Assembly: GCA_944324945.1 (NCBI GenBank)
Contig: CALUYE010000007.1
Coordinates: 2,501 to 66,500, forward strand
Source of the DNA: Candidatus Gastranaerophilales bacterium
Lineage (GTDB): Bacteria; Cyanobacteriota; Vampirovibrionia; Gastranaerophilales; Gastranaerophilaceae
Length of the DNA stretch: 64,000 bases
Reading direction: 5' to 3'
The notes under the pieces were generated by a model. That model saw nothing but the letters and a program-made list of their open reading frames with translations. It had not been told where the DNA came from and did not search any database. Made by a program: the position numbers and the translations under genes. Below are positions 703-39,924 of this stretch, piece after piece (the stretch's first letter is position 1; each line of letters starts with the position of its first letter).

Positions 703-1485
703 TTATTCTTTTTGAACAGATTTTTTAAGCCACTCATCGGCACGCGCTCCGTTTAAAATCTTTCCATCTGCCCTTATTCCAAAACCAAACGGAGCTTCAT
801 CTTTATTTGGTTCATCTATATCCATACAAAATATTTTATAATTTATATCAAAACCGTTTTTATCTTTATAATAAGGATCAATGTCCCCGGGGGCTGCGAA
901 TGCTCTTTTTACATTCTGCGCGTTCGGAGCATTGGTTTGCGAATTCCAGCCTGAATGGTTTGAGCCGAATGTTCTTAGAGGATCTGTTTCATAATAGCGT
1001 ATATCATCAGTTGTTACTATAGAATTACCAAGCTTTTTTTGTACATCTTCAATTGCACAGGTCGAATCAAGCTTTTCTTTCATATCGCTAAGCATCGCTT
1101 CGCTTATATCGGCATCTTCCAAATTATACATTCCTGATAAAGAACCGTATGTTGCAAGACTATCTTCTAAACAATTTACACTTTTAGTACTTATAACATC
1201 TGCAAATGTTTCACAAAAATATGTAAAATCCCCCTCGTGGGTTCTATCAACCAAAACTCCGTTTGCTCGCGTACCCAGATCACCGTTTTGATAATATTTA
1301 TCCGATGTTACAAGTTCACGAATTACTGTTCCCAGCGTATTATATCCTTTTTTAAATTTCATGGCTTTTTCATCAGGAGAAGATTGAAATGCCATAGGTA
1401 AAAGTATCATGGTTAAAACACCGATTATAACTAGGACGATTAGAATTTCTGCTAATGTAAAAGCGCGGTTAAATTTTTTTTTCAT
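703..1485 (-). CDS. Prepilin-type N-terminal cleavage/methylation domain protein (type IV pilin/pseudopilin-like), paralog 1
   Basis: N-terminus MKKKFNRA|FTLAEILIVLVIIGVLTMILLP: short basic leader, Glu+5, hydrophobic helix. Shares conserved N- and C-terminal blocks with 30273-31067 and 39166-39924. Confidence 0.85.
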   Translation of the reverse strand: MKKKFNRAFTLAEILIVLVIIGVLTMILLPMAFQSSPDEKAMKFKKGYNTLGTVIRELVTSDKYYQNGDLGTRANGVLVDRTHEGDFTYFCETFADVISTKSVNCLEDSLATYGSLSGMYNLEDADISEAMLSDMKEKLDSTCAIEDVQKKLGNSIVTTDDIRYYETDPLRTFGSNHSGWNSQTNAPNAQNVKRAFAAPGDIDPYYKDKNGFDINYKIFCMDIDEPNKDEAPFGFGIRADGKILNGARADEWLKKSVQKE

Positions 1486-1536
1486 ATTTCCCTTATATTT
1501 TAAATGATTTCAGTATTAATTTAACTTTTAATTATA

Positions 1537-1626
1537 ATTTTTTTATCAAAATTCTTATTAACAGGAGTAATTTTTTATCAATATTGTAATACTAATATGA
1601 ATTTTATGTCAATATTTGTATTAATA
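1537..1626. promoter_or_regulatory. Three phased imperfect direct repeats in the pilin1/XRE1 divergent spacer (candidate operator array)
   Basis: aatttttttatcaaaattcttattaaca / taattttttatcaatattgtaatactaa / gaattttatgtcaatatttgtattaata. The TCAA cores lie at 1546, 1578 and 1609 (32 and 31 bp apart). The middle repeat contains the palindrome CAATATTG. Confidence 0.4.
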
Positions 1627-1678
1627 ATTTATTTAATTTAGTTAAAAACCTTTTTAATATTAGTAAAAAGGGAAAATA

Positions 1679-2005
1679 ATGAAATTAACAACAAAATTTG
1701 GAAAAAGATTAAAAGAACTCAGAAAAAAAGCGGGACTCAGCCAACAACAGCTTGCGGAACTTGTTGGGATGGAATCCTTAAATAATATAAGCAAACTTGA
1801 AACAGGCGAACAGCTTCCCAAAAAAGAAAATCTTGAAAAAATTTGCAAGGCCCTTTGTGTTGAACCCAGAGAACTTTTTGATTTTGGCCATTTTAAAACA
1901 AGAGAAGAAATCATTATCGACCTAAACAACACCTTCAAAACCTCCACCCTAAAAGACCTTCAATTTTTCAAAAGAACAATTGATGCATATTATGAGTCGA
2001 AGTAG
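1679..2005 (+). CDS. XRE-family helix-turn-helix transcriptional regulator (XRE1)
   Basis: FGKRLKELRKKAGLSQQQLAELVG...ISKLETG fits the HTH_3 pattern. SD AAAGGGAAAATAATG. Divergent from pilin paralog 1. Full-length similarity to 31231-31548. Confidence 0.85.
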   Translation: MKLTTKFGKRLKELRKKAGLSQQQLAELVGMESLNNISKLETGEQLPKKENLEKICKALCVEPRELFDFGHFKTREEIIIDLNNTFKTSTLKDLQFFKRTIDAYYESK

Positions 2006-2027
2006 ATTTAAAATATTTTTTTATTTT

Positions 2028-2056
2028 AAAAAGGCAGCTTCAAAGCTGCCTTTTTT
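2028..2056. terminator. Bidirectional rho-independent terminator between XRE1 and the NifX-like gene
   Basis: aaaaaGGCAGCTTcaAAGCTGCCtttttt: 8-bp GC-rich stem flanked by an A-run and a T-run, between convergent genes. Confidence 0.8.
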
Positions 2057-2074
2057 GTTATTTTATTTAAAAAT

Positions 2075-2467
2075 TTATTTATGATGATTGCATTTATGAG
2101 AATGGTGGCAGTGGGTGTGGTCGTGGCCTTCGCCTTGGCATTGGTTTTCGCCTGTTTTTAGGGTTGAATTCAGGTATTCTTTTACGATTTGTTCTATGGG
2201 TAATTCTTCGCAGCCTGAAATTACTTTGACATTGTTCATTTTAAAAGCTTCCATGGGGCGTGCTCCCATGCCGCCTGCAAGAACAACCGATACTCCTTGT
2301 TTTGCAATCCAATCGGCGCTTTTGCAGCTTACGCCTTCTTGCGGTGTTTTTGTTTCTATGTTTAAAATTTCTTTTGTATCAGGGTTAACTTCAACAAAAC
2401 CGAATGTTTCACAGTGTCCGAAATGTGCGCATAATTTGCCTTCAAGCACGGGAAGTGCAATTTTCAT
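2075..2467 (-). CDS. NifB/NifX-family (FeMo-cofactor-binding-like domain) protein with Cys/His-rich tail
   Basis: MKIALPV..GKLCAHFGHCETFGFVEV... and VVLAGGMGARP are typical of the NifX/NifB C-terminal fold. The tail is CQGEGHDHTHCHHSHKCNHHK. Confidence 0.7.
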   Translation of the reverse strand: MKIALPVLEGKLCAHFGHCETFGFVEVNPDTKEILNIETKTPQEGVSCKSADWIAKQGVSVVLAGGMGARPMEAFKMNNVKVISGCEELPIEQIVKEYLNSTLKTGENQCQGEGHDHTHCHHSHKCNHHK

Positions 2468-2525
2468 AATTTCCTCCTTTGAATTTAATATGTTTATATT
2501 ATAACTCTTCGGTTTTTTAAATGCA

Positions 2526-3440
2526 CTACTTGTTGTAGTTAATTTCTTTATCGGGGGTGAATTTTTCTTTTAATTTATCCAAAAAAAGTTTAGCAGCGGG
2601 AGAAAAAACCTGATATTTTTTCCATACGATATCAAGCGCTGATTCAAGTTTTGGTTTTAAAGGTTTAAAACATAAGGTGCTTTCGCTTGATGTATCAACA
2701 AGTTTATCTAAAGTTATGGCATATCCAATCCCCGCTTTAACCATTACTGCAGCGTTATAAACAAGATTGATTGTTGCAACGGTGTTTAAATTTTCAAATT
2801 CGCCCTGAAACCATTCGATAAATTCATTTTTACCGTTTAATTTTCTCATTGCCTGTCTTGAATTAATAAGGGGTAAATTTTTTAAATCTTCAAGTTCAAT
2901 ATAATCCTTTTTGGCAAGTTTGGAATTTTTTCTCATGACAACACCCCAAATATCTTTATCAGGCAGGGCTATGGTATCGTATTTTGATAAATCAACAGGC
3001 TGGATTAAAACGCCGAAATCCAAAAGTCCCTTATCAAGTTTTTCGGTAACATCTTCTGCGTTTCCGCTATAGATATGAAATTTAATATCGGGATAATCTT
3101 CTTGAATTTCTTTTATAATGTGTGCAATATGTTTCATACAATCGGATTCGCCGCCGCCTATGTAAATATCTCCGCTTATTGTATCGCTTATTGATAGTTC
3201 CGATTGTGTTTTTTCGACAAGGTCGACAATTTCCTGTGCTCTTTTTCTTAAAATCATGCCTTCAGGCGTTAGCGTAACTTTATATTTACCGCGAATTAAA
3301 AGTTTTTGTTTAAGTTCTTTTTCTAAATCCTGTAATTGACGCGTTAGTGTCGGCTGGGTAAGATGAAGCGAGTTTGCTGCTCCTGTTATGCTGCCTTCGC
3401 GTGCTACCGCTAAAAAATATTTCAATACCCTTAGTTCCAT
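2526..3440 (-). CDS. LysR-family transcriptional regulator
   Basis: MELRVLKYFLAVAREGSITGAANSLHLTQPTLTRQLQDLEKEL is the canonical LysR N-terminal wHTH. About 300 aa including a substrate-binding domain. Confidence 0.9.
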   Translation of the reverse strand: MELRVLKYFLAVAREGSITGAANSLHLTQPTLTRQLQDLEKELKQKLLIRGKYKVTLTPEGMILRKRAQEIVDLVEKTQSELSISDTISGDIYIGGGESDCMKHIAHIIKEIQEDYPDIKFHIYSGNAEDVTEKLDKGLLDFGVLIQPVDLSKYDTIALPDKDIWGVVMRKNSKLAKKDYIELEDLKNLPLINSRQAMRKLNGKNEFIEWFQGEFENLNTVATINLVYNAAVMVKAGIGYAITLDKLVDTSSESTLCFKPLKPKLESALDIVWKKYQVFSPAAKLFLDKLKEKFTPDKEINYNK

Positions 3441-3563
3441 AAAACAATATTAATTCTTTTAATTATACCTGTCAAGTATTTTTTATTATGTAATATAAGT
3501 ATTTGCTATTTTTAAAAAATAGTAAATAATAAAAAAGAGAAATTATAATTAACAGGATTAAAT

Positions 3564-4133
3564 ATGGATATAAAAGAATTTTTAGATTTTATTGAAACAA
3601 AACAACCCGTTGAAGCAAATTCAAAAGTTTTTGAAATGTTTCATATATTAGCTCAAGAAGCGCTTAAAATAACCATGGAAATAAATAACAAATATCATAC
3701 TCCTGATGAAATTGTTGATTTATTTTCAAAATTAACAGGCAAAAAAGTTCATCCGTCTTTTAAGCTTTTCCCGCCTTTTTACACGGATTGCGGAAAAAAT
3801 ATTACGCTTGGCAAGAATGTTTTTATAAACAGCTGCTGCAAATTCCAAGATCAGGGCGGGATTAAAATCGGGGATGGATGCCTTATAGGGCATAGCGTTG
3901 TGATTGCAACCATAAACCATGATTTTAATCCCCATAATCGGGCTAAAATGTATCCAAAACCCGTAAATATCGGGAATAATGTCTGGATTGGATCTAATTC
4001 AACGATATTACCCGGGGTAAATATAGGAGACGGCGCAATAATTGCAGCAGGAAGCGTTGTTATAAATGACGTTTTAAAAAACACTATCGTAGCGGGTAAT
4101 CCTGCAAAAATTAAAAAAGAAATACGGTTTTAG
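3564..4133 (+). CDS. Sugar O-acetyltransferase (Maa/LacA-like, left-handed beta-helix hexapeptide repeat)
   Basis: Hexapeptide repeats [13 protein letters not shown]..., [31 protein letters not shown], and C-terminal AGNPAKI. Confidence 0.85.
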
Positions 4134-4143
4134 AGGTGTTTTG

Positions 4144-4263
4144 ATGTTTAAAATATTAAAAATTTTATTTGTTTTTATGATTCTATCAATTATAAAAGGT
4201 ATTAATATGGAAAATGCAGCCCTTTTGGAGCCGCTAAGAAACAGGCTTCGAATTTATCTTTAA
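4144..4263 (+). CDS. Unannotated small ORF (39 aa, hydrophobic N-terminus)
   Basis: SD GAGGTG lies 5 nt before the ATG and overlaps the stop of the acetyltransferase gene. Product MFKILKILFVFMILSIIKGINMENAALLEPLRNRLRIYL. Below the track size cut-off. Confidence 0.3.
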   Translation: MFKILKILFVFMILSIIKGINMENAALLEPLRNRLRIYL

Positions 4264-4275
4264 TTAATAAGCATT

Positions 4276-5628: not shown

Positions 5629-5643
5629 TTACTATTCCTTGAA

Positions 5644-5677
5644 TTTTCCTTGTGATATAATTACATCACAAGGAAAA
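5644..5677. promoter_or_regulatory. Perfect 13-bp inverted repeat (candidate MarR operator) overlapping a TATAAT box
   Basis: TTTTCCTTGTGAT-ataattac-ATCACAAGGAAAA. TATAAT at 5656-5661 sits at the dyad. Located in the tolC/marR divergent spacer. Confidence 0.6.
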
Positions 5678-5688
5678 GGGAAAATCAA

Positions 5689-6144: not shown

Positions 6145-6155
6145 GGAAAAAGACC

Positions 6156-7106: not shown

Positions 7107-8675
7107 ATGGAACAAGGAAATAAACAAAAGAAAGTTCCTTTGTGGCTTGTTGCTTTTTCAATTCTTTTACCCACCTCGTTTTCAGCCCTTGCAACATCTG
7201 CAACAAACGTTGCAATTCCTCATATATCGGGTTATTTTGCCGCTACAAATGATGAAGCAAAATGGGTTGTAACATCATATATGATAGCAAATGCTTGTCT
7301 TATAATGCTTTCAGGCTGGCTTGAGGGATTAATGGGAAGAAAAACTTTTTTAAAAGTTTCAATTGTAATTTTTACGCTCGGAGCTTTAATTTGCGTTATA
7401 GCACCGTCTTTAAATGCCATGGTTTTAGGAAGACTGATTCAAGGTATCGGGGGAGGCCCTATGACTCCTATGTCTCAGACGATTTTATTGAGCGCTTTTC
7501 CGCCCGAGAAAAAAGGGGTTGCAATGTCTTTGTTTGGGCTTGCTGTTATGGTTTTTGCAATTTTGGGGCCGTCTTTTGGAGGCTTTATTGTTGATAATTT
7601 AAACTGGCAGTATATTTATTCCGTTAATATTCCCATAGGACTTATTTCTTTATTTCTTGTGAGCAGGTTCATTCAAGATACAAAACATGATAAAAAATCG
7701 GAAAAAATAGATTATATAGGGATGAGCGCTTTAATTTTATGGCTTTTATCAATTCAAATCGTGCTTGATAAAGGACAGCAATATAACTGGTTTGATTGCG
7801 CATGGATTAGCTGGTTGAGCGGTTTTTCTCTTGTTGTGCTTGCGTTTTTAATTGTATGGGAAATTGAAAATAAAAATTCTTTTATAAAATTAAGGCTCTT
7901 TAAAGACAGAAATTTTTTAATCGGAACAATTATTTCAACTGCAGTTACCATGGTTGTTTTTACTACTATGTTTTTAGCACCGCAGTTTTTGCAAAACGTA
8001 CTTGGCTACACTGCTCTTTTAAGCGGCTATACCCTTGCGCCAAGGGTAATATCTTGCGTTATTATGCTTATTCTAATTACACCTTTAATGAAAATTTATG
8101 ACAGCAGATTGTTAATTGCTGCAGGCTTTTTCTTTCTTGGGATTGCAACGTTTATGTTTACGAATGTAAATTTAAGTGTTTCGTTCATTTATGTTTCAAT
8201 TCCAAACGTACTTTTAGGTATAGGTGTAATTTTAACTTTTATTCCGATATCAGCGCTTGCACTGGGAACACTCCCCAAAGACCAGCTTGCAAACGGAGCA
8301 AGTTTGCATAATTTTTGTAAAACAGTTGGTGCAGCGGTTGTTGTATCCGTTTCATCAACAATTGTTGCAAGGCATTCTCAAATTCATCAAACTTATCTTG
8401 TTGATAATTTATCTAATTTTAATCTTGTTTTTCAAAATAAAATGACATCCTTCATTCATACGTTTTCGCTCTTTACTTCAAGCTCATTTGCGCAAATTAA
8501 AGCCAATGCTTATGTTTATAAACAGCTTATTGTTCAGGCAAGATTAATGTCTTATGTTGATGTGTTTGCACTGTTTGCACTTTTAGCTTTTATTTTGATT
8601 CCAATCTCTTTTATGCTTAATACAAACGTGAATGAAAAAGATGCACTTGAACATCAAAAACATCATCACGTATAA
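7107..8675 (+). CDS. MFS drug:H+ antiporter, DHA2 (EmrB/QacA, 14-TM) family (copy 1)
   Basis: MIANACLIMLSGWL...GRK and GRLIQGIGGGPMTPMSQ motifs. 522 aa with multiple TM segments. Its ATG abuts the stop of the adaptor gene. Confidence 0.9.
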   Translation: MEQGNKQKKVPLWLVAFSILLPTSFSALATSATNVAIPHISGYFAATNDEAKWVVTSYMIANACLIMLSGWLEGLMGRKTFLKVSIVIFTLGALICVIAPSLNAMVLGRLIQGIGGGPMTPMSQTILLSAFPPEKKGVAMSLFGLAVMVFAILGPSFGGFIVDNLNWQYIYSVNIPIGLISLFLVSRFIQDTKHDKKSEKIDYIGMSALILWLLSIQIVLDKGQQYNWFDCAWISWLSGFSLVVLAFLIVWEIENKNSFIKLRLFKDRNFLIGTIISTAVTMVVFTTMFLAPQFLQNVLGYTALLSGYTLAPRVISCVIMLILITPLMKIYDSRLLIAAGFFFLGIATFMFTNVNLSVSFIYVSIPNVLLGIGVILTFIPISALALGTLPKDQLANGASLHNFCKTVGAAVVVSVSSTIVARHSQIHQTYLVDNLSNFNLVFQNKMTSFIHTFSLFTSSSFAQIKANAYVYKQLIVQARLMSYVDVFALFALLAFILIPISFMLNTNVNEKDALEHQKHHHV

Positions 8676-8748
8676 AAATTAATTGATTAAAATTTGTTTA
8701 TGATAAAATAATTTTTGGATTATTTTGTATTGTTATAAAGGTTATTAT

Positions 8749-10179
8749 ATGAATTCAAAATTTTTTAAAAGAACAAAAATCGTAGCAACGATTGGTCCTG
8801 CGGTAGATTCACCCGAAGGCATACAATCGTTAATTGATGCAGGTGTTAATATTTTCAGATTAAACACATCGCACGGTACTATGGAAGACCATTTAGAAAA
8901 ATTTAAAACAATAAGAAGCGTTTGCGAAAAAAATGACTCTTATTGCGCAATTATGATAGACCTTCAAGGCCCTAAAATCAGGGTTGGAAATCTTGATAGC
9001 GAAATTAATTTAAATAACGGCGATAAGGTAATTTTTGCCCATAACGCCAAACAAAATGAAGGCATAATTCCTGTTGATTATGAAGGAATTGCATCCGATG
9101 TTGAAAAAGGAAGCAGAATTTTACTTGATGACGGTAAAATTCAAGCCGTTGTTGATGAAGTAAAAGATAATAAAGTTTTTGCAACAATTACAAACGGCGG
9201 TATTTTAAAATCAAGAAAAGGTTTGAATATCCCCGGTTCAACAAACAGTCTTGATGCAGTTACAAAAAAAGACATAGAATATATCAAATTTGCTGTTGAA
9301 AATAAAGCCGATTATATTGCTCTTTCTTTTGTAAGACAAAAAGAAGACGTTTTACTTGCAAAAAAATATATAAATGATTTCGGTGCAGATATTCCCGTTA
9401 TTGCAAAAATGGAAAAACCGCAGGCAATTGAAAATATTGAAAGTATAGTATCTGTTGCAGACTGCGTTATGGTTGCAAGAGGAGATTTAGGGATTGAACT
9501 TTCTCCTGTCGAAGTTCCGATTTGCCAGAAAAAAATAATTGAAGAATGTAACAAACAAAAGAAACCCGTAATTGTTGCAACGCAAATGCTTGAATCAATG
9601 ATAGAAGAACCGATTCCAACCAGAGCCGAAAGCTCCGATGTTGCAAATGCAATATTGGATGGAGCGGATGCGGTTATGTTGAGTGCCGAAACCTCGGTAG
9701 GCAAATTTGCAATAAAAGCGGTTGAAACAATGACGCAAATTGCACACACCGTTGAAAACAGTAAGTTTTACAGGTTTGATAACGATTTTAAAATTTCCGA
9801 AGAAATGGCGCTTACAAGACAGGCTGTTGCTTTCGGTGCGGATAAAATGCTTAAATATGTTAATGCTAAAGCACTTTTAACATTTTCTCATTTCGGGTAT
9901 TCAACGCGTCTTGTTTCAAAACTAAAACCTTCAGTACCTATTATCCTTGTATCGGATAATAAACAAACCTGCAGAAAAATGGCACTATACTGGGGTGTTT
10001 TCCCACATTATAAAATGTGGGATGATGTTTTGGATCAAAAGTTATTAATTAATATAGACAACTTTTTAATTAACGAAGTAAACCTTAAAAAAGGAGACTA
10101 CGTTATTATCACAGGCTCTGCCCCGAAATTAATCTCGGGACGTACAAACTTTATAAGAGTTCACAGGATAGGAACCTAA
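8749..10179 (+). CDS. pyk: Pyruvate kinase
   Basis: MNSKFFKRTKIVATIGPA..., NIFRLNTSHG, MVARGDLGIE. I prefer the ATG at 8749 over the track's TTG at 8725. Confidence 0.95.
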   Translation: MNSKFFKRTKIVATIGPAVDSPEGIQSLIDAGVNIFRLNTSHGTMEDHLEKFKTIRSVCEKNDSYCAIMIDLQGPKIRVGNLDSEINLNNGDKVIFAHNAKQNEGIIPVDYEGIASDVEKGSRILLDDGKIQAVVDEVKDNKVFATITNGGILKSRKGLNIPGSTNSLDAVTKKDIEYIKFAVENKADYIALSFVRQKEDVLLAKKYINDFGADIPVIAKMEKPQAIENIESIVSVADCVMVARGDLGIELSPVEVPICQKKIIEECNKQKKPVIVATQMLESMIEEPIPTRAESSDVANAILDGADAVMLSAETSVGKFAIKAVETMTQIAHTVENSKFYRFDNDFKISEEMALTRQAVAFGADKMLKYVNAKALLTFSHFGYSTRLVSKLKPSVPIILVSDNKQTCRKMALYWGVFPHYKMWDDVLDQKLLINIDNFLINEVNLKKGDYVIITGSAPKLISGRTNFIRVHRIGT

Positions 10180-10191
10180 AATTAAGGTTCC
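10170..10191. terminator. Hairpin spanning the two convergent stop codons of pyk and the DUF475 gene
   Basis: AGGAACC-taaaatta-GGTTCCT, followed by ttctgtttt. The genes are separated by only 2 nt. Confidence 0.45.
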
Positions 10192-12909: not shown

Positions 12910-12922
12910 TATAAACTCCTTT

Positions 12923-23664: not shown

Positions 23665-23668
23665 AAAC

Positions 23669-29732: not shown

Positions 29733-29780
29733 AATACCTTAATTGTATTACAAAAAAATAAAATATGCTAAAATACTTTT

Positions 29781-30272: not shown

Positions 30273-31067
30273 TTACTCTTTTTGAATGGATTTATTCAAC
30301 CATTCTTTAGCTTTGTAGCCTATAAGCATCTTCCCATCCGCACGAATACCAAAAGCAAAAGGGTCTTCACCTTTATCGATACCGTCTATATCCATACAAA
30401 ATAATTTGTAATTTATATCAAAACCGTTTAAACCCCGATTAGTCATATCCGTATCGGGTGATGCAAACCATCTTCCATCTGTTATTGGTTCACAGTCTTT
30501 GTCATTTTCTATATTATCAAGACAGAATCTGGTATCATTGTTTAAATGCCTTGCACTTTTAATGGAAATACCGAAAGTGGTAGCGGGTGCGCTTTGATAA
30601 AACACTATCCCGTCAGCCGTTACAATTTCCGCTCCCACTGCTTTGGCTCTTGATTTACAAATATCATCATAATTCCATAAATTTTCATCTTTTGCCCAGT
30701 CGCTTTTATCGGGATTTAACCATATACTTGCCTGCGCTTCAGAGCTTCCTTTAGATAGAGAACAATCAACACTTTTGGTGCTTATTGTATCTGCAAACGT
30801 TTCACAAAAATACGTAATATCCCCATCATGCTCCCCGTCAATCGTATTTCCGTTTGCTCTTGTACCCAAGTCCCCATTTTGATAATATCTATCTGATGAG
30901 ACAAGCTCACGAATTACCGTATTTAGAGTATTATATCCTTTTTTAAATTTCATAACCTGTTCATCGGGAGAACTCTGAAACGCTACAGGTAAAAGTATCA
31001 TGGTAAGAACGCCTATTATAACTAAAACGATTAATATCTCGGCTAATGTAAAAGCGTATTTTTTCAT
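30273..31067 (-). CDS. Prepilin-type N-terminal cleavage/methylation domain protein, paralog 2
   Basis: MKKYA|FTLAEILIVLVIIGVLTMILLP, with AAGGAG SD. Residues 6-68 and the last 50 aa are near-identical to paralogs 1 and 3; the centre is unrelated. Confidence 0.85.
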   Translation of the reverse strand: MKKYAFTLAEILIVLVIIGVLTMILLPVAFQSSPDEQVMKFKKGYNTLNTVIRELVSSDRYYQNGDLGTRANGNTIDGEHDGDITYFCETFADTISTKSVDCSLSKGSSEAQASIWLNPDKSDWAKDENLWNYDDICKSRAKAVGAEIVTADGIVFYQSAPATTFGISIKSARHLNNDTRFCLDNIENDKDCEPITDGRWFASPDTDMTNRGLNGFDINYKLFCMDIDGIDKGEDPFAFGIRADGKMLIGYKAKEWLNKSIQKE

Positions 31068-31230
31068 ATAAGCTCCTTAAAAATTTACAATCTAAATTTG
31101 TATTTTTTTATTATTTTACCTAATTTACTTCATATTTTACTATGCATTTTTAGAATAATCAAGAAAATACCAATTTTGCATTGTACTTTTAGTTTCGAGA
31201 ATATATTAAAATCAAAACGGGGTTTAAATT

Positions 31231-31548
31231 GTGAAAGATATTAAATTATTACTCGGAAAAAGAATTAAGGAACTGAGAAAAGCGCAAAAGCTTTCTCAGG
31301 AAGCACTTGCCGAAATTATTGATATTGATCAGAGAAATTTAAGCAATATAGAATGCGGAATATCTTTCCCCGCTAAAACCCTTGTTCAAATTGCCGATGC
31401 GCTGAAAGTTTCAATAAGTGATTTGTTTGATTTTGAACATTGTAATTACGATATTGAAAATATGAAAAAATTTATTAAAAACGAACTTGATAATTTGACT
31501 AATGATGACATAAAAACAATTTTCCGCCTTGTAAAATCAATGAGATAA
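31231..31548 (+). CDS. XRE-family HTH transcriptional regulator (XRE2)
   Basis: GTG start. LGKRIKELRKAQKLSQEALAEII...LSNIECG. Collinear with XRE1, including the C-terminal helical extension (DLFDFEH...). Confidence 0.85.
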   Translation: MKDIKLLLGKRIKELRKAQKLSQEALAEIIDIDQRNLSNIECGISFPAKTLVQIADALKVSISDLFDFEHCNYDIENMKKFIKNELDNLTNDDIKTIFRLVKSMR

Positions 31549-31632
31549 TTAAAAATACTCTTAATTAAGTATATAAATACAATCATATATAAAATATAAT
31601 ATTAAAAGCGCATTATAGTGCGGATATTAATC

Positions 31633-32820
31633 ATGATTAAAACGGTTTTAACAGATAAATCACAAAATTCAAAAGAATTATTGTCATCTTATTTAAAAAA
31701 TGCGGCAGGCATTGATTTTATTGCGTGTTTTGATAATCTTTGCGATATAGAAAATTTTGATAACATTGATTTAATTATTTTTAATATTTCTTTATCCGAT
31801 GAAGAAGAAACCTTAAAGCAGATTAATGAAATTAAACAAAAAAACGAAAATATTAAATTTATAGCGCTCAGCGATGATATGGATTCCATGCTTGCTAAAA
31901 ACACTTTAAATAATGGTGTATCCGATTTTTTGTTTAAACCTGTTATAGGAAGTATTTTAGAAGCTTCGATTAAAAAAATTAATTTTCCAAAAAAAATAAA
32001 AGAAGAACAAACAATTAAAAAAGCAAAGACAATAAGCGTTTTTTCTCTTAAAGGAGGAGTGGGTAAAACATCTGTTGCGGTTAATTTAGCTTATGAAATT
32101 GAAAAAAAGACAAATAAAAATGTTTGTCTTTTGGATTTTAATTCAAGTTCTTCTGATTGCGCTTTATTTTTGGGTTTAAATTCAAATAATAATATCGATG
32201 ATTTATTAAATGAATTTCAATATTCAAATAAAGAAAAAGCCCTTTCCTTGTTTGAAAAATTTCAAAATACTAATCTATATGTTTTAAGTACAGCATCCGA
32301 TAGCCTTGATTTTAAAATTACTCCCTTAAAAATAAATTTAATTATAAATTCTCTAAAAAATATTTTTGATTATATAATCATAGACACATACTGTGCTTAT
32401 GATGAAAACAATCTTGCCGTTTTAAATTCAAGCGATTTAATTTTATATATTTCAATTTTAAGCCAAAACGTTATAAAAAGTACTCAATCAATGATGGAAA
32501 TGTTTTCAAAAATAGGCTATAATCAGGAAAAAATTAAATTAATACTAAACAGATACGCGCAAGATTCTCAAATTTCAATTGAAGAATTCGAAAAAGAAGT
32601 CAATAAAGAAGTATTTATAACCCTGCCAAACAATTATTTAACAATGTCGGATGCGATAAACAGGCAAAATCCGCTCGATATTACTAATCCGCAGTCAAAT
32701 ATTGCAAAAGCTTTTAAAAAATTAGCTCTAAGTCTTGATGAAATTGATATAAACGCATTAAATTCAACAAAACAATACAACCATGGAATTTACAACATAA
32801 TCCGAAAGATGGGAGAATGA
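31633..32820 (+). CDS. TadZ/CpaE-like protein: atypical (pseudo-)receiver domain fused to a ParA/MinD-type ATPase
   Basis: The N-domain has receiver topology, but the phospho-acceptor position reads DLIIFNISL (Asn) while the ...FLFKP Lys is kept. Deviant Walker A VFSLKGGVGKTSVAVNLA and Walker B YIIIDT. ATG 31633 preferred over GTG 31618. Confidence 0.7.
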   Translation: MIKTVLTDKSQNSKELLSSYLKNAAGIDFIACFDNLCDIENFDNIDLIIFNISLSDEEETLKQINEIKQKNENIKFIALSDDMDSMLAKNTLNNGVSDFLFKPVIGSILEASIKKINFPKKIKEEQTIKKAKTISVFSLKGGVGKTSVAVNLAYEIEKKTNKNVCLLDFNSSSSDCALFLGLNSNNNIDDLLNEFQYSNKEKALSLFEKFQNTNLYVLSTASDSLDFKITPLKINLIINSLKNIFDYIIIDTYCAYDENNLAVLNSSDLILYISILSQNVIKSTQSMMEMFSKIGYNQEKIKLILNRYAQDSQISIEEFEKEVNKEVFITLPNNYLTMSDAINRQNPLDITNPQSNIAKAFKKLALSLDEIDINALNSTKQYNHGIYNIIRKMGE

Positions 32821-34031
32821 AATTGTCGCTTAAAGATAGATTAAATGAAGAAAATCCCAAAATAAAGGATATAAAACAAGAATCAAAGGAACCCGTGTAT
32901 TATAAAACAAGTGAAGAAGCTCTAAAAATTGATTCACTTGGAATTATAGATACGCTTTTGGCGGATGATGAAATAAATAATATCTTTGTTAACGGTGCAA
33001 AAAATATCCGCATTGAAAAAAAAGGCAAAATAAAACAAATAAATTCAAATTTTAAAAATGAAACAGAGCTTGAAAAAATCGTAAATAAATATCTTAAATA
33101 TAAAGGTTGCGATATTGAAAATGAAAAATATTTTAAATTAAATTACAAAAAAGGAGTTAATTTATCATTAACACTTCCTCCTTTGAGTGATAAAATTACC
33201 CTTAATTTTAAATGTTTTAACAATAAATTTGCAAATTTAAAAACCCTTGAAGAAAACAGGTGTTTATCTAAAGAAGCAGCACTTTTTTTAGAAGCAATAA
33301 GCAATCTTGATATAAATATTTTAATTTTGGGATTTAAAAAATCTCTAAAAACAACTCTTTTAGCTTCTCTTATAAAAGTTTTGAGCGAAAATACCCAAAC
33401 CTGCGTAATTGATTATTTAAATGAAATTGAAATAAATAAATCAAACTGCGCTTATTTTGATTTTTCAATTCTAAAAGATATAAAAAAACAAAAAGAAATA
33501 ACTAACTCTCTTATCTCCTCTTCTTTTGATAAATTATTCATAAACGGTTTGATTAATGACAACATAGAAGATATATTAAAAATTGCCTCCAATAATAAAG
33601 GTATTGTTATAAATTACGATATTGAAAATTTGAATAATTCAAACACTGAAATCATAAATAAAATCTATAAAGCTTTTGATATAATAATTACCTGCGATAA
33701 ATTTAAAGACAGGGCAGGTAAAATAACAAAAATTTTACAAACTTCTAAGCAAGATTCAGCCCCGCAGGAAATTTTTTATTTAAACGAAACGCAAAAACTT
33801 GATTCAACGGGACTTATTCCTGAAGTTTATAACAAAATGAAAGAAAATAATATTTCATTTAATCAAAACATATTTGATAAAGATTATAAACACACTTATT
33901 CGAACGATATTAACGAAATGTTAAACAGCGAAAAAACAATAAACCCCGAAATTTTAAAGAAATTCAAAAAAGATTTTTTGAATAACGAAACAAAAGAGCC
34001 ATCACAAAATAATGAAAACCGAGATTTATAA
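32817..34031 (+). CDS. CpaF/TadA-like secretion-ATPase homolog with degenerate catalytic motifs (probable pseudo-ATPase)
   Basis: Collinear by eye with CpaF: INNIFVNGAKNIRIEKKG, LTLPPLS. The Walker A position reads ILGFKKSLKTTLL (consensus GGTGSGKTT). The Asp-box position reads VIDYLNEI, Walker B FDKLFINGLI (no Glu), and His-box NNKGIVINYD (no His). ATG overlaps the upstream stop (ATGA) and has a GGGAGA SD. Confidence 0.6.
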   Translation: MKLSLKDRLNEENPKIKDIKQESKEPVYYKTSEEALKIDSLGIIDTLLADDEINNIFVNGAKNIRIEKKGKIKQINSNFKNETELEKIVNKYLKYKGCDIENEKYFKLNYKKGVNLSLTLPPLSDKITLNFKCFNNKFANLKTLEENRCLSKEAALFLEAISNLDINILILGFKKSLKTTLLASLIKVLSENTQTCVIDYLNEIEINKSNCAYFDFSILKDIKKQKEITNSLISSSFDKLFINGLINDNIEDILKIASNNKGIVINYDIENLNNSNTEIINKIYKAFDIIITCDKFKDRAGKITKILQTSKQDSAPQEIFYLNETQKLDSTGLIPEVYNKMKENNISFNQNIFDKDYKHTYSNDINEMLNSEKTINPEILKKFKKDFLNNETKEPSQNNENRDL

Positions 34032-35088: not shown

Positions 35089-35515
35089 CGGCCCTAATCT
35101 TAACATGCTCGGAACAAGAGAGCCTGAAATCTACGGATGCGAAACGCTTGATGATATTAATAAAGAATTAAGCGATTTTTCAAAAACACTTTCTAAAGAT
35201 ATAGAAATTGATTTTTATCAATCAAACACGGAAGGCGAAATTATTGATAAAATTCAAAATTCAAAAAAATATAAAGGTTTAATAATAAACCCCGCAGCTT
35301 ATACCCACACAAGCATTGCAATAGCAGACGCCATTAAAGGAGCAGGCATAACGGCTGTTGAAGTGCATTTATCAAATATCCATGCAAGAGAAGAATACAG
35401 AAAAAAATCCTTCATATCTCCTGTTTCCATGGGGGTTGTGGCAGGTTTCGGCAAAAACAGCTACAAGCTTGCGCTTTTAGGATTGTATAAACATTTTTGC
35501 AAAAACAATGAATAA
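35069..35515 (+). CDS. aroQ: Type II 3-dehydroquinate dehydratase
   Basis: ILVINGPNLNMLGTREPEIYG, INPAAYTHTSIA, VEVHLSNIHARE. Confidence 0.95.
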   Translation: MKILVINGPNLNMLGTREPEIYGCETLDDINKELSDFSKTLSKDIEIDFYQSNTEGEIIDKIQNSKKYKGLIINPAAYTHTSIAIADAIKGAGITAVEVHLSNIHAREEYRKKSFISPVSMGVVAGFGKNSYKLALLGLYKHFCKNNE

Positions 35516-36380
35516 AGAGTTTGAATTTTTAAACATAATAAATAAAACCCTTGATGATAATTCTTATCTTGGAAATGACTGTGCTTATTTAGATGAATAT
35601 AAGCTTGCAATCTCATGCGATATTTTAATTGAAGATGTTCATTTTAAAAGACGCTATATGAGAGCGTCAGAAATTGCAAAAAAAGCAATTTTATCAAATA
35701 TATCAGACATTTTAGCCTCAGGTGCAAAATTAAAATATTTAACAATAGCGCTGAGCGGGCAATTGGATAATGATTTTATCAAAGAATTTTATAAAAGCGC
35801 AAACGAATTATCAAAAATATATGATTTTAAAATTGTATCTGGTGATTTAACAAAATCAGATAAAATTGTTGTTGCAATAAATGTTTTCGGGGATTATAAA
35901 AACAGAAACATCTCAAAAAGAAATAACGCAAAAGAAGGCTATATTACAGCAGTAATAGGGGAATTCGGCTCAAGCACGCAGGGGCTTTTTGATTTAGAAA
36001 AAGGATTGACGGATAATTATTTTATTAATTATCATAAAACCCCTAAATTATACCCTGAATTTTCATCGTTAATTTCAAAAAATGCAAAATATCCGTACGC
36101 CATGATGGATTCATCAGACGGACTTGTTGATTGTTTAAGTCAAATTTCTTCTAAAAGCGGGGTAAAAATAGAAGTAAAATACGACAAAATTCCCAAAAAA
36201 ACGCAAAACAAAGACTTTGTTTTATACGGAGGCGAAGATTATTCGCTTGTTGTGTGTTTAGATGAAAGGGATTTTATAAAATTCCCGTTCCTTATAAAAA
36301 TAGGCGAATGTAATAAAGGATACGGGGTCTATATTGATAATAAAAAAACGGATTATAAAGGCTATGAACACTTTGAATAA
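35508..36380 (+). CDS. thiL: Thiamine-monophosphate kinase
   Basis: GNDCAYL, DILIEDVHF, SNISDILASGA, MMDSSDGL (AIR-synthase-related fold). Confidence 0.85.
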   Translation: MNKEFEFLNIINKTLDDNSYLGNDCAYLDEYKLAISCDILIEDVHFKRRYMRASEIAKKAILSNISDILASGAKLKYLTIALSGQLDNDFIKEFYKSANELSKIYDFKIVSGDLTKSDKIVVAINVFGDYKNRNISKRNNAKEGYITAVIGEFGSSTQGLFDLEKGLTDNYFINYHKTPKLYPEFSSLISKNAKYPYAMMDSSDGLVDCLSQISSKSGVKIEVKYDKIPKKTQNKDFVLYGGEDYSLVVCLDERDFIKFPFLIKIGECNKGYGVYIDNKKTDYKGYEHFE

Positions 36381-37020
36381 AGTTAAAATCAGTGCAATTA
36401 TTACATCGGGCGGGAAATCGCTTCGTTTCGGTTCAAATAAATTACTTGCAAAACTCGGTGGTTTATCGGTTATTGAAACAACGATTCTAAAATTTATCAA
36501 TCATGTTGATGAAATAATTATCCCATCAAGCGATGAAATTCAGGAATTTATAAAAAAATCAAAAGTATATTCAACTAAAATTAAATTTGCACCCCCCGGT
36601 TCAACCCGTCAAAAAAGCGTATATAACGCTATTTTAAATTGTTCTAATCCCGAAATTGTTCTAATCCATGACGGCGCCCGTCCGTTTATAGATGAAGAAA
36701 TAATCAAAAAGACAATTGAGATGACATATCGCTATAGCGCAATTGTGGTAGGTAAGATGGCAGTTGATACAATTAAAGAAGTGGTGTTTAATTCTAATGG
36801 GGGAAAAATTGTTAAAACCTTAAATCGAAAAACAATTTTTCAAGCGCAAACTCCCCAGGCTTTTGATTATGAATTAATTAAAAAAATACACCAAAAATAT
36901 AAAGATAATCCTGATTTTACAGACGACAGCTCCATGGTGGAAAACGAGGGAATTGATGTTTATATTTTGGAAAACAACAAAAAAAATATAAAAATTACCA
37001 CTAAAGACGATTTATACTAA
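36364..37020 (+). CDS. ispD: 2-C-methyl-D-erythritol 4-phosphate cytidylyltransferase
   Basis: AIITSGGKSLRFG, VLIHDGARPF, AQTPQAF. ATG 36364 preferred; the track start at 36334 lies inside thiL. Confidence 0.9.
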   Translation: MNTLNKVKISAIITSGGKSLRFGSNKLLAKLGGLSVIETTILKFINHVDEIIIPSSDEIQEFIKKSKVYSTKIKFAPPGSTRQKSVYNAILNCSNPEIVLIHDGARPFIDEEIIKKTIEMTYRYSAIVVGKMAVDTIKEVVFNSNGGKIVKTLNRKTIFQAQTPQAFDYELIKKIHQKYKDNPDFTDDSSMVENEGIDVYILENNKKNIKITTKDDLY

Positions 37021-37116
37021 TACTATCGTCCATTTAAAAATAATCTCAAATACATTAAATTTATAAAGGATGTAAGTAAAATCATGCCTTAAATTAACTG
37101 TATTTGCGAGGTTATT

Positions 37117-37425
37117 ATGCTGATAGATAAAAAATTTGCTTCTGATAAACAATGCTACTTTAACGAATTTAAAAATGTATCAAAAGAACTTCTTCCCTGG
37201 CTTGAAAATTTAGCGTGGGAATGTCGTTGTAAAATTGAGAAAAAAGAATGGAAAAGTAAATATAACAACTATGTAATTTATGATTACGAACCGTTTTGTT
37301 CGGACGGTTTTGAAATTAATCTGACTCTTTCGTCGCGCCAGAGTGAATATTTGAATTTTGTCAGATATTTATACGAAAATAAACTTCAAACAATAGGATA
37401 CCTTAAAGCTTGTCTGAATTTATGA
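37117..37425 (+). CDS. Hypothetical protein (102 aa)
   Basis: ORF only. Trp/Cys-containing small protein. Its end overlaps the radA stop by 6 nt (convergent). Confidence 0.4.
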   Translation: MLIDKKFASDKQCYFNEFKNVSKELLPWLENLAWECRCKIEKKEWKSKYNNYVIYDYEPFCSDGFEINLTLSSRQSEYLNFVRYLYENKLQTIGYLKACLNL

Positions 37426-38820
37426 TTTATCCTGCTTTAAGCCTTGGATAATCGCATCCGTTACTTTTTTTACCTGTTTAAGTTCAAGCCCTATGGAATT
37501 AATTTTTTTATAAATTTCACTGTTGACACAAGGAATTATAGCCTTCTTAAAGCCGAGCTTGCAGGCTTCTTTAAGTCTGCGCTCAATATTTGCAACAGGT
37601 CTTACTTCGCCCAAAAGTCCGATTTCGCCTATTATTATCGTTTTATTTGATATCGGAATATCGCGGATGGAGCTTATTATAGCTAAACATAACGCTAAAT
37701 CATACCCTGGTTCTATAATATCCAACCCCCCGACAACATTCACATAAACATCCTGCTTTGATAAATTCAAACCGACTTTTTTTTCTAAAACCGCAACAAT
37801 TTGAAGCAATCTGTTATAATCAAGCCCCAATACAACGCGTCTTGGGTTAGGATAAGGGGTTGAACCTACAAGAGCTTGAATTTCATGTAAAAATATTCTG
37901 CTTCCTTCAACAACAGCCGTTACGGCACAGCCCGATGCGTCCTCATATTGATCCAAAAGCATGGATGAAGGAGAATTTACTTCAACTAATCCGTTATCCT
38001 CCATTTTAAAAACGCCTACTTCGGAGATTGCCCCGAATCTGTTTTTAATACATCTTAAAAGCCTGTATTGTCTGTATTTATCCCCTTCGAAGTTTATAAC
38101 ACAGTCAACCATGTGTTCTAAAACTTTAGGGCCTGCAATATTTCCTTCTTTTGTAACATGACCTATTATTATCGTTGTTATGTTTTTTTGTTTTGCAATT
38201 CTCATTAAAACATTTGTACATTCTCTGATTTGCGATACACTTCCGCAGGATGAGGCAATATTTGCGCAAAAAACGCTTTGAATACTGTCTACAATTAAAA
38301 AATCAGGCTTTATTATATCAATCTGATTTATAATTTCATCAATACATGTTTGATTTGTTAAATATAAATTTTCAGGCTCAACCCCGAGTCTTTTTGCCCT
38401 TAATTTAACCTGTGTCGGGCTTTCTTCCGCACAAATATATAATACTTTTAAATTTTCATTGTTAAATTTAATATCGCAGATGCATTTTGTTGTTTGTAAA
38501 ACTAAAGTAGATTTGCCAATCCCAGGATCTCCCGCTAAAAGAGTCAAGGAGCCTTCTACAAACCCTCCGCCTAAGACTCTGTCCAGTTCATCTATACCGC
38601 TTTTGAATCTTGTTCTTTCATCAAGTTTTATTTCTTTTATTTTTTCAATTTTACTATCGGAAATTATATTCGAAGGTTTTGACGAATCAGGTTTAGTTTG
38701 CTGCGCTACCACTTCTTCGACAAGAGTGCCGAATTGATTACATTCAGGGCATCTTCCAAGATATGAAACGGTTTCATACCCGCATGATTGACAGACCCAT
38801 TTTGTTTTTGTTTTAGCCAT
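37420..38820 (-). CDS. radA: DNA repair protein RadA/Sms
   Basis: Zinc ribbon CQSCGYETVSYLGRCPEC, Walker A LLAGDPGIGKST, KNRFG motif, and a Lon-like C-terminal domain. Confidence 0.95.
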   Translation of the reverse strand: MAKTKTKWVCQSCGYETVSYLGRCPECNQFGTLVEEVVAQQTKPDSSKPSNIISDSKIEKIKEIKLDERTRFKSGIDELDRVLGGGFVEGSLTLLAGDPGIGKSTLVLQTTKCICDIKFNNENLKVLYICAEESPTQVKLRAKRLGVEPENLYLTNQTCIDEIINQIDIIKPDFLIVDSIQSVFCANIASSCGSVSQIRECTNVLMRIAKQKNITTIIIGHVTKEGNIAGPKVLEHMVDCVINFEGDKYRQYRLLRCIKNRFGAISEVGVFKMEDNGLVEVNSPSSMLLDQYEDASGCAVTAVVEGSRIFLHEIQALVGSTPYPNPRRVVLGLDYNRLLQIVAVLEKKVGLNLSKQDVYVNVVGGLDIIEPGYDLALCLAIISSIRDIPISNKTIIIGEIGLLGEVRPVANIERRLKEACKLGFKKAIIPCVNSEIYKKINSIGLELKQVKKVTDAIIQGLKQDKS

Positions 38821-38856
38821 AGGTTTATTTTAACATAATTTTAAACCAATAAAAAA

Positions 38857-39075
38857 TTAAATTTCAATAATATTACCAAGAGGAATTTCAAGCGAATTTA
38901 CAAGTTCAACAAGCTTTTTGACAGTCAGATTCTGTTCCCCTCTTTCAATTTTTCCGATGTAATTGGTATGAACGTTTGCAAGTTCCGCAAAGCGTTCCTG
39001 AGACAGGTGTTTTTTGGTGCGCTCAACTCTAAACTTAAGTCCTATGCGTTTTAAGACTGTCTTGTAATCTTCCAT
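38857..39075 (-). CDS. XRE-family HTH transcriptional regulator (XRE3, 72 aa)
   Basis: LKFRVERTKKHLSQERFAELANVHTNYIGKIERGEQN. Divergent from pilin paralog 3. No SD upstream of its ATG (possibly a short leader or leaderless). Confidence 0.85.
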   Translation of the reverse strand: MEDYKTVLKRIGLKFRVERTKKHLSQERFAELANVHTNYIGKIERGEQNLTVKKLVELVNSLEIPLGNIIEI

Positions 39076-39087
39076 AAGGAGATTTTA

Positions 39088-39126
39088 CACTATTGACATA
39101 GTGGTTTCTATACTATTATAATAGTG
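39088..39126. promoter_or_regulatory. Twin 16-bp palindromic operators overlapping the -35 and -10 of the pilin-3 promoter
   Basis: CACTATtgacATAGTG (39088-39103) and TACTATtataATAGTG (39111-39126), with centres 23 bp apart. Confidence 0.65.
39094..39122 (+). promoter_or_regulatory. Consensus sigma70 promoter for pilin paralog 3
   Basis: TTGACA (39094-39099), a 17-nt spacer, then TATAAT (39117-39122). It lies 44 nt upstream of ATG 39166. Confidence 0.75.
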
Positions 39127-39165
39127 GATAAAGATAATATTATTTTTATTGAGATAGGAATTTAT

Positions 39166-39924
39166 ATGAGAAAGTTTGGTTTTACTTTAGCGGAAATTTT
39201 AATCGTTTTAGTTATAATAGGCGTTTTAACCATGATACTTTTACCGATTGCATTTCAGAGTTCTCCTGATGAACAGGTTATGAAATTTAAAAAAGGATAT
39301 AATACATTAGGTACTGTCATTCGTGAACTTGTAACATCAGATAAATATTATCAAAACGGAGACTTAGGGCTTAAAAAAGACGGTACGCTTATTTTAAATA
39401 ATGATAATACAAGAAGCTATTTTTGCGAAACTTTTTCGGATGTTGTAAGCACAAAAAATGTAAATTGTATGGAAGATAATTTAGTAAGAGGAACGGTTTT
39501 ATTAAACAGACAAGAAGTGGGCACAGGGTACACCCCTAAAACTCCAAGCGAAGAAGATATTAAAAATTCAAAGGAACTTTTTGATACAAACTGCAAAAAT
39601 GCCCAAAAAGACATGCCTGAAGAAATCGTATTAAATGACGATACGATTTTTTATAACGCGGGTACTGCTGCTTTTGGCTCCCATGAAACCTATAGTGAAG
39701 ACGGGACGCCGATTCACCTTCGTTTTTTCTCGCCGCCCGATCAGTTTCCCGCTAATTATTGTGATGAAAACGGTTTTGATATAGCCTATAAGACTTTTTG
39801 CATGGATATAGACGGCTTTAATAAAGGCGAAGACCCTTTCGGTTTTGGAATAAGAGCAGATGGAAAAATCTTAACGGGTGCGCGTGCGGATGAATGGATA
39901 AATAAATCTATTCAAAAAGATTAA
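39166..39924 (+). CDS. Prepilin-type N-terminal cleavage/methylation domain protein, paralog 3
   Basis: MRKFG|FTLAEILIVLVIIGVLTMILLP. ATG 39166 preferred because the track's upstream start lies in the promoter. Conserved N- and C-blocks as in paralogs 1 and 2. Confidence 0.85.
   Translation: MRKFGFTLAEILIVLVIIGVLTMILLPIAFQSSPDEQVMKFKKGYNTLGTVIRELVTSDKYYQNGDLGLKKDGTLILNNDNTRSYFCETFSDVVSTKNVNCMEDNLVRGTVLLNRQEVGTGYTPKTPSEEDIKNSKELFDTNCKNAQKDMPEEIVLNDDTIFYNAGTAAFGSHETYSEDGTPIHLRFFSPPDQFPANYCDENGFDIAYKTFCMDIDGFNKGEDPFGFGIRADGKILTGARADEWINKSIQKD

Follow-up and report, generated by a model that had tools for sequence, protein, structure and literature searches.

Strain-variable alleles of major pilins are represented by the PilA groups I-V of Pseudomonas aeruginosa and the FimA serogroups of Dichelobacter nodosus, and variable pilins exchanged between strains are already known from cultured pathogens. 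The competence pilus PilA of Vibrio cholerae combines a conserved N-terminus with variable heads, is encoded among conserved neighbouring genes and mediates kin recognition (bioRxiv 10.1101/354878). Here, a family of pilin-like proteins with three copies (W1, W2 and W3) in a 64,000-nucleotide (nt) stretch of DNA assigned to a Candidatus Gastranaerophilales bacterium (contig CALUYE010000007.1, positions 2,501 to 66,500; hereafter the window) was compared with such systems. The analysis presented below suggests that the family is, on balance, probably a set of type IV filament subunits encoded by stand-alone genes, each under its own regulation, with assembly into filaments as the predicted component of this reading. 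Two elements of the system are new: the divergent XRE-type helix-turn-helix (HTH) gene found beside every window copy and most relatives, and the replacement of alleles at two orthologous loci of this family. A six-frame motif scan of the window identified exactly four prepilin-like N-termini, three of them in the family copies that the initial annotation had reported, encoded by the following open reading frames (ORFs; protein lengths in amino acids, aa):

703..1485, minus strand: family copy W1, 260 aa, leader MKKKFNRA followed by FTLAE; loop V1 at about nt 1069-1170 and loop V2 at about nt 859-963.
30273..31067, minus strand: family copy W2, 264 aa, leader MKKYA followed by FTLAE; V1 at nt 30669-30761 and V2 at nt 30429-30569, with two extra Cys in V2.
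39166..39924, plus strand: family copy W3, 252 aa, leader MRKFG followed by FTLAE; V1 at nt 39469-39582 and V2 at nt 39679-39768.
46927..47574, plus strand: fourth prepilin-like ORF, 215 aa, KA followed by FTLAE; outside the family.

In a protein alignment the three family copies are 58-60% identical overall. The alignment agrees with the initial annotation on the shared parts: a nearly identical stretch at residues ~6-75, the YFCETF..STK.V.C block common to all three copies and a C-terminus of ~50 residues with 73-78% identity. The family profile matches the window copies with E-values of 1e-103 to 1e-113, far beyond chance. The ORF at 46927-47574(+) resembles the family at its N-terminus only, scoring 19.5 bits on the family hidden Markov model across profile positions 3-26, and no HTH gene adjoins it. 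W3 could instead start further upstream, at GTG 39124; the ATG at 39166 is the most likely start, because the promoter described below ends at 39122. The family extends well beyond the three members originally proposed. A first database search returned 452 full-length relatives without names, nearly all from metagenome assemblies, and an exhaustive profile search against a library of 1.84 billion representatives yielded 268 clusters (50% identity) at E<=1e-30 and 566 at E<=1e-10. Source annotations were checked for the family clusters, and no member was named in them.

The leaders of W1, W2 and W3 are basic, span 5-8 residues, end in Ala or Gly at position -1 and are followed by mature Phe1, Glu5, Gly14 and Pro22. 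Across 43 diverse relatives, Phe1, Glu5 and Pro22 (P27) are invariant and Gly14 (G19) is nearly so; these members also share invariant F, T, L, E, P and further residues in alpha1. Judged by these residues, the family has at its N-terminus the alpha1 signature canonical for type IV filament subunits that polymerise. The prepilin model TIGR02532 matches the three copies at 21.5-23.6 bits (cut-off 16.3), and Pfam N_methyl scores 24.6 for W1, 22.2 for W3 (cut-off 21.2) and 20.9, just under the cut-off, for W2. Sequence matches in the PDB are confined to the alpha1 region of pilins and GspG. Past the N-terminal motif, neither Pfam nor NCBIfam provided any match in the family proteins, and matches to named NCBIfam equivalogs (GspG/H, ComGC/D/E, PilA) span the first 25-45 residues only and fall far under their cut-offs. 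The best-scoring named models, GspG/H and ComGC/D/E, reach 18-27 bits versus cut-offs of 49-89, with GspG at 21-23 bits (cut-off 88.85) and ComGC at 23-25 bits (cut-off 75), both restricted to the N-terminal 25-40 residues. Ala at position -1 had been noted in three of the four pilin-like proteins in the window, W3 carrying Gly. The count holds, and the residue is not anomalous, because Ala is the majority state in the family (92/120, with Gly in 24/120) and PilD-type prepilin peptidases have been described as cleaving after Gly or Ala (PMC3244431).

Protein architecture was derived from an alignment of 122 family sequences and is given here in W2 numbering, with mean pairwise identities:

Residues 1-102: N-terminal segment, conserved, 68% identity.
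Residues ~103-133: V1, 11% identity, 22-47 aa long.
Residues 134-166: mid-block, 42% identity, D..CK....G.EIVT.DGI.YYQ..P...FG.
Residues ~167-213: V2, 11% identity, 12-49 aa long, often with extra Cys.
Residues 214-264: C-terminal segment, 66% identity, YK.FCMDIDG..KGEDPFG.GIR.DGK.

V1 and V2 are hypervariable, indel-rich, polar loops parted by the conserved mid-block. The description of the central ~100 residues as unalignable therefore holds for the two loops and fails for the mid-block between them. Four Cys are invariant in the head (W2 C88, C102, C137 and C224). The C-terminal segment also contains an invariant acidic, Gly-rich motif (W2 220-246: Y220, C224, D226, D228, E234, F237, R242, D244, G245 and K246), which could be a metal-binding or subunit-contact site. 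AlphaFold2 models of W2 were obtained for the full-length protein (pLDDT 88.5, pTM 0.83) and for the head only (pLDDT 87.8, pTM 0.87). In both models an alpha1 helix of ~50 residues is accompanied by extra helices and, at the C-terminus, by a beta-sheet of 4-5 strands, and in both the dips in confidence coincide with V1 and V2.

Each window copy is paired with a divergently oriented gene encoding a small XRE-type HTH protein, and promoter-like sequences were identified in two of the intervening regions:

1679..2005, plus strand: XRE-type HTH gene paired with W1, divergent, 108 aa; Pfam HTH_3 1.9e-14, HTH_31 5.2e-15.
31231..31548, plus strand: XRE-type HTH gene paired with W2, divergent, 105 aa; Pfam HTH_3 1.5e-12.
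38857..39075, minus strand: XRE-type HTH gene paired with W3, divergent, 72 aa; Pfam HTH_3 3.8e-11.
1486..1678: W1/HTH intergenic region, with a promoter-like TTGACA-18-TACAAT at 1612..1583 on the minus strand (11/12).
39076..39165: W3/HTH intergenic region, with a perfect 12/12 consensus promoter TTGACA-18-TATAAT at 39093-39122.

The same pairing recurs among relatives, for which contigs are designated here by L and proteins by P handles. The W1-type HTH pairing is found again in L085, L086, L091 and L092, the W2/HTH arrangement in L002, and in L088 a 71-aa HTH protein is encoded next to a W3-like gene. Overall, a divergent HTH gene stands beside family genes on the unrelated contigs L002, L003 (two genes), L087, L088, L089 (two genes), L006, L010, L017 and L018; in L024 the HTH neighbour was detected by an in-house HTH profile, and in L012 and L016 the family gene is flanked by small divergent ORFs without a Pfam match. 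The HTH proteins are mutually 14-39% identical. In the W1/HTH intergenic region, which is 97-100% identical between strains with different W1 alleles, inverted repeats at 1580-1591 and 1605-1616 overlap the promoter hexamers, and at W3 a 14-bp perfect palindrome, ACTATTATAATAGT (39112-39125), overlaps the -10 hexamer. An HTH/pilin intergenic region of L003 (2849-2987) carries a 22-bp perfect palindrome, CATAGTTTTAGCTAAAACTATG. These two palindromes and the 1580-1616 repeats are candidate locus-specific operators; no operator motif common to the paralogous intergenic regions was found to be conserved, each region presenting its own palindrome or inverted repeat in the surroundings of a strong promoter. 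Taken as a sequence pattern, this arrangement suggests copy-specific transcriptional control by the neighbouring XRE regulator. An Rfam scan of the window produced no matches. W2 and W3 each abut convergent genes and are thus monocistronic.

Two further sets of loci were observed in connection with this pairing. Distant full-length members of the family (28-42% identity) in L009, L021, L023/L038, L029 and L030 have no HTH partner and share a conserved context, in which the pilin-like gene is followed by an MTAP-like and then a YggT-like gene (neighbours judged by eye); this context may represent an ancestral single-copy locus. Conversely, ten loci on human-gut and other metagenome contigs (L047, L048, L052, L059, L060, L066, L068, L077, L078 and L083) encode prepilin-like proteins that resemble the family at the N-terminus only and carry a divergent XRE-type HTH gene 47-116 nt upstream, so that the XRE-prepilin gene pair may be an architecture wider than one family.

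The divergence among the window copies was assessed per segment with the Nei-Gojobori method, which estimates nonsynonymous (dN) and synonymous (dS) divergence, using the N-terminal 64 codons (dN 0.04-0.08, dS 0.66-1.0) and the C-terminal 51 codons (dN 0.12-0.21, dS 1.3-2.9). At the nucleotide level the conserved segments are 73-86% identical, with 81-86% in the N-terminal segment. By these estimates the window copies are old paralogs with termini held by purifying selection. Gene conversion and recent duplication were ruled out as the origin of the near-identical termini, since synonymous sites are near saturation, and the same observation argues against conversion from cassettes. In V1 and V2, dN and dS are approximately equal and both saturated, and these values are uninformative because the alignment is poor there.

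Individual copies are stable across samples. Counterparts with 98-99% identity occur in many samples for W1 (P0028), W2 (P0001) and W3 (P0073), and the three corresponding 90% clusters (8-16 sequences each, window copy included) contain 12-18 variable sites scattered along the protein. The high identity and the scatter of these polymorphisms indicate that there is no fast variation within lineages. Targeted hypermutation by a diversity-generating retroelement was rejected on the same scatter of within-cluster polymorphisms, and Pfam matches to a reverse transcriptase were absent from the scanned ORFs beside the three copies, in a window that was not scanned exhaustively.

Comparison of orthologous loci between strains provided a different picture. 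The W1 locus is found in L085 and L086 with the same neighbours, namely the HTH gene, a Nitro_FeMo-Co protein, a LysR gene and the downstream type ISP restriction enzyme. Between W1 and L085, which carries allele P0174, the flanks, the promoter region and the first ~40 codons are 97-100% identical, whereas identity ranges over 48-77% in the core and drops to 48-53% at window positions 865-984 and 1105-1161. The proportions of synonymous (pS) and nonsynonymous (pN) differences in the core (codons 105-215) are 0.66 and 0.28, respectively, versus a pS of at most 0.075 in the first 40 codons, and the divergence is patchy (pS falls from 0.73 in codons 61-80 to 0.08 in codons 81-100). The confinement of high synonymous divergence to the core argues that old, divergent DNA was recombined in, rather than that point mutations were recently selected. 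At a second locus, L089 and L090 share one family gene (P0021) at 100% identity, and the adjacent family gene shows 34-79% identity, with indels, from about codon 50 to the stop codon (271 versus 255 aa); outside the replaced gene, no 90-nt window falls below 78% and all but a few reach at least 93%. At these two independent orthologous loci, flanks of 97-100% identity surround a gene interior at only about 35-55%, a pattern that indicates allele replacement by recombination, and the comparison of strains for shuffling of the central segment that had been proposed initially is thus positive. Protein pairs with mosaic identity were also identified: P0050/P0075 (scaffold 94%, V2 12%), P0034/P0042 (scaffold 96%, V2 32%) and P0049/P0079 (98% and 60%). 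In V2, the L085 allele is somewhat nearer to P0021 than to W1.

Two other candidates for locus alleles were rejected. P0160, from the cluster of P0002 and 77% identical to W2, was considered as an allele of the W2 locus, and P0021 as an allele of the W1 locus; both lie at other loci with HTH genes of their own and hence represent additional paralogous loci. In L091 and L092, the P0174-type allele of the W1 locus (gene 1501-2284) is interrupted where V2 begins: at about codon 168 a +1 frameshift turns GGG into GGGG and splits the gene into ORFs of 170 aa and 95 aa. The frameshifted gene occurs on ~19-23 contigs from two independent sample series and the inactivated copy is, for this reason, probably inherited, which suggests that individual family copies are dispensable. 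At 7376-9313, L089 also carries a small ORF of 106 aa with an N_methyl motif and, after it, the gene for a 530-aa protein. This protein contains a patch (8196-8465) with 78-91% identity to L090, in strains that are otherwise at least 93% identical, and may be another variable surface protein.

Taken together, these results are best accommodated by a repertoire of type IV filament subunits whose genes stand alone and are regulated individually, which we regard as the probable explanation, if by no means a secure one. In this explanation, the subunit would be synthesised as a prepilin whose basic leader of 5-8 residues is removed by a PilD-type prepilin peptidase, after Ala or Gly, to expose Phe1, and the mature subunits, with their canonical hydrophobic alpha1 helix, would polymerise. 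The head would combine a conserved assembly scaffold with two hypervariable loops, V1 and V2, predicted to be exposed. Each gene, standing alone under a strong sigma70-like promoter (as seen at W1 and W3) and paired with its divergent XRE-family HTH gene, would be subject to copy-specific control. The source of diversity would be old, discrete allele types that strains exchange through homologous recombination, with the conserved 5' coding segment and either the conserved 3' segment or the downstream flank as anchors; this mechanism is deduced from the pattern of identity and from synonymous divergence. The most probable role of the proteins would be that of alternative surface-exposed filament subunits or adhesive pilins, on whose loops host antibodies, phages or kin recognition may exert balancing or diversifying selection.

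Several observations weigh against this explanation. Typical major type IVa pilins are smaller than the 250-265 aa proteins of the family. Foldseek searches of the PDB with the full-length and head-only models returned a best E-value of 0.4 and TM-scores of ~0.1, with no detectable structural neighbour among solved pilins, so that the structure predictions called for initially yielded confident models with an alpha1 helix and no PDB neighbour for the head. A Foldseek search of BFVD with the head-only model gave no significant match, and a PDB profile search with the head alone returned nothing. It is therefore the N-terminal module that places the proteins in the pilin superfamily, because the head matches nothing in these sequence and structure searches, and the ~200-residue head is a family of its own. 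In addition, PilB, PilC, PilD, PilM-Q and PilT were not found among the scanned window ORFs, which cover only part of the 64 kb. The polymorphisms within the 90% clusters are not enriched in V1 or V2, and ongoing positive selection on the loops is thus not demonstrated. Finally, a near-identical donor of the replaced core at the W1 locus was sought and none was found. As regards these assembly genes, linkage to them is not obligatory for pilins (PMC3244431), and a Gastranaerophilus genome has been reported with pilA, pilB, pilC, pilT and pilD (PMC5877343).

The size of the proteins and the elaboration of their heads also speak for a possible, if rather unlikely, alternative, in which the family would consist of minor or tip pilins, or of pseudopilins like those of the type II secretion system (T2SS), that prime or cap a filament made of another major subunit, the loops serving as adhesin or ligand-binding surfaces. 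At 250-265 aa with an elaborate head, the family is nearer to minor pilins than to the ~150-aa major pilins, and the weak N-terminal NCBIfam matches include GspG/H and ComGC/D/E. Extensive minor-pilin repertoires with diverse roles are moreover present in the sister phylum, as in Synechocystis (bioRxiv 10.1101/2020.12.15.422378, 10.64898/2026.02.12.705559). The pseudopilin scores are, however, far under their cut-offs (e.g. GspG at 22.8 versus 88.85), and Glu5 is conserved as in polymerising subunits. Minor pilins also usually occur in operons, as sets of 4-5 distinct families; in the present case one family supplies numerous stand-alone paralogs, and each of them has a promoter and a regulator to itself.

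The unmatched head bears on a second alternative, which we consider improbable, namely that the prepilin N-terminus is a mere membrane anchor or export signal of surface or periplasmic proteins that form no filament, such as binding proteins or adhesins. Possible parallels, by analogy, would be the archaeal substrate-binding proteins with class III signal peptides and the large N_methyl-bearing families of Planctomycetes and Verrucomicrobia. This alternative would account for a head without structural similarity to any solved pilin and for genes unlinked to assembly machinery, and the conserved acidic C-terminal motif (FCMDIDG..KGEDPFG.GIR.DGK) could in that case be a functional or metal-binding site and not a packing surface. 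Nevertheless, the full alpha1 signature (Phe1, Glu5, Gly14 and Pro22), which is typical of subunits that polymerise, is invariant or nearly so across the family, and the model retains a ~50-residue alpha1 helix followed by a C-terminal beta-sheet.

Programmed antigenic variation within the cell, through Neisseria-like conversion among the three copies or targeted hypermutation, is largely refuted and very improbable: the conserved ends and variable core superficially resemble pilE/pilS and a GGG to GGGG frameshift inactivates one allele in many samples, but every copy is intact, having a start codon, a leader and promoter-like sites, the conserved segments are too divergent for recent conversion (dS 0.66-2.9), the copies are stable across samples with scattered polymorphisms, and the G3/G4 tract falls short of the length of a classical contingency locus and its frameshift occurs in contigs of two independent sample series, as expected of an inherited change. 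Of the original proposal of diversifying pilins, the prepilin-type class III signal and the alpha1 helix are thus retained, and the paralogs are old and show no sign of fast programmed variation.

The probable repertoire of individually regulated filament subunits admits a more far-reaching formulation, which we advance as a doubtful one. According to this 'one regulator, one pilin' formulation, uncultured gut Melainabacteria would carry many stand-alone filament-subunit genes with a new head fold, and these would each be switched by their own XRE repressor, acting on a locus-specific palindromic operator, so that one or a few subunit types would be displayed at a time while head alleles are traded by recombination. 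If true, antigenic, phage-receptor or kin-recognition variation would operate at two levels, through the choice of the expressed copy and through allele exchange.

The family occurs in low-GC, uncultured bacteria associated with the gut, which indirect evidence identifies as probable Candidatus Gastranaerophilales (Melainabacteria/Vampirovibrionia). The window has a GC content of ~31%, and contigs near-identical to it come from the gut-metagenome series BRZ and ONAT22. Further family loci are located on L087 and L089, contigs from sample series that also gave near-identical strains of the window organism. A scan of genome contigs returned a single weak N-terminal match, in a Candidatus Gastranaerophilales metagenome-assembled genome from one of these series, and a tblastx comparison of that locus with the window detected no similarity. 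Melainabacteria of the Gastranaerophilales type are common uncultured members of the human and animal gut, and their cell surface is almost undescribed. The family provides a sequence-defined set of probable surface filament subunits, with discrete allele types that might be used to mark strains and with a regulatory module open to testing, made up of an XRE gene, a pilin gene and a promoter bearing a palindrome. Should the proteins be displayed, the diversity of their loops would suggest that host IgA, phages or kin recognition exert selection on a lineage not yet amenable to cultivation.

The window copies do not belong to a pilus operon. Outside the HTH genes, their neighbours are housekeeping genes, comprising a mur/ftsW cluster, ribD, aroQ and ispD according to profile scans, and radA and tmk-like genes by eye. 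The only genes related to filament assembly among the scanned ORFs are those encoding a CpaE-like REC+MinD protein and a sub-threshold TadA-like ATPase, which are listed below with the other observations made in the vicinity:

31618-34031, plus strand, directly downstream of the HTH gene of W2: a CpaE-like protein with a receiver domain and a MinD/ParA ATPase, followed by a 404-aa protein with sub-threshold similarity to TadA/VirB11 secretion ATPases (TIGR03819 51.6 bits versus 373; Pfam T2SSE 16.6 bits).
39921-41253, minus strand, convergent with W3: two tandem overlapping ORFs of 220 and 228 aa that resemble thymidylate-kinase-type P-loop proteins, judged by eye and by the Pfam Thymidylate_kin match of the homologous neighbour in L088.
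1-645, minus strand, just downstream of W1: the N-terminal portion of a type ISP restriction-modification enzyme of ~1000 aa, identified by alignment to the L085 gene 5841-8864 (MmeI_Mtase, Eco57I and Type_ISP_C domains).
45310-46761, minus strand: a 483-aa ORF matching only the C-terminal cytoplasmic half of FlhA, the membrane domain being missing (FHIPEP profile positions 321-655; TIGR01398 142 bits versus a cut-off of 772).

The CpaE-like/TadA-like gene pair is kept in L002 and could be a degenerate or divergent Tad-like module. The FlhA-like ORF may be what is left of a flagellar export gene after truncation, a reading that fits the incomplete flagellar gene sets reported in Gastranaerophilales (PMC5877343).

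Compared with known systems, the pseudopilins of the T2SS (GspG/H) and of competence systems (ComGC/D/E) share the prepilin N-terminal motif with the family, although no gsp or comG operon context was found here. Flagellin resembles the family in having conserved termini that build the filament core, an exposed hypervariable centre, extreme allelic diversity and lateral exchange (PMC7018530); it is nonetheless an unrelated protein with a different secretion and assembly system, and the likeness is one of analogy only. In Neisseria, PilE and the pilS loci likewise present a constant N-terminus, variable internal segments and multiple homologous genomic copies. Silent, promoterless partial cassettes were, in contrast, not found here, the paralogs are saturated at synonymous sites, and variation occurs between strains and not within a lineage. 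Closer in phylogenetic terms are the pilin-like repertoires of Cyanobacteria, the sister lineage of Melainabacteria, where Synechocystis (PilA1-PilA11) encodes many prepilin-type genes per genome, some of them outside assembly loci and differentially regulated (bioRxiv 10.1101/2020.12.15.422378, 10.64898/2026.02.12.705559). These repertoires comprise many different families, often in small operons, as opposed to the single expanded family described here, and a divergent XRE partner was not found described for them.

The closest functional parallel is provided by the strain-variable major pilins encoded at a fixed locus, of the V. cholerae PilA type. Such pilins are single genes in or near pilus operons (pilABCD), unlike the several stand-alone paralogous loci with their own XRE regulators observed here. 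In the family, moreover, the C-terminal ~50 residues are among the most conserved, variability is concentrated in two internal loops and no similarity between the head and those of solved pilins could be detected. In both cases, however, the leader and alpha1 are conserved while the head is highly variable and a few Cys and key residues are maintained, and in both a divergent allele takes the place of the pilin in other strains although the genes around it stay conserved, a variability that in the strain-variable major pilins has been linked to kin recognition or to the evasion of immunity and phages.

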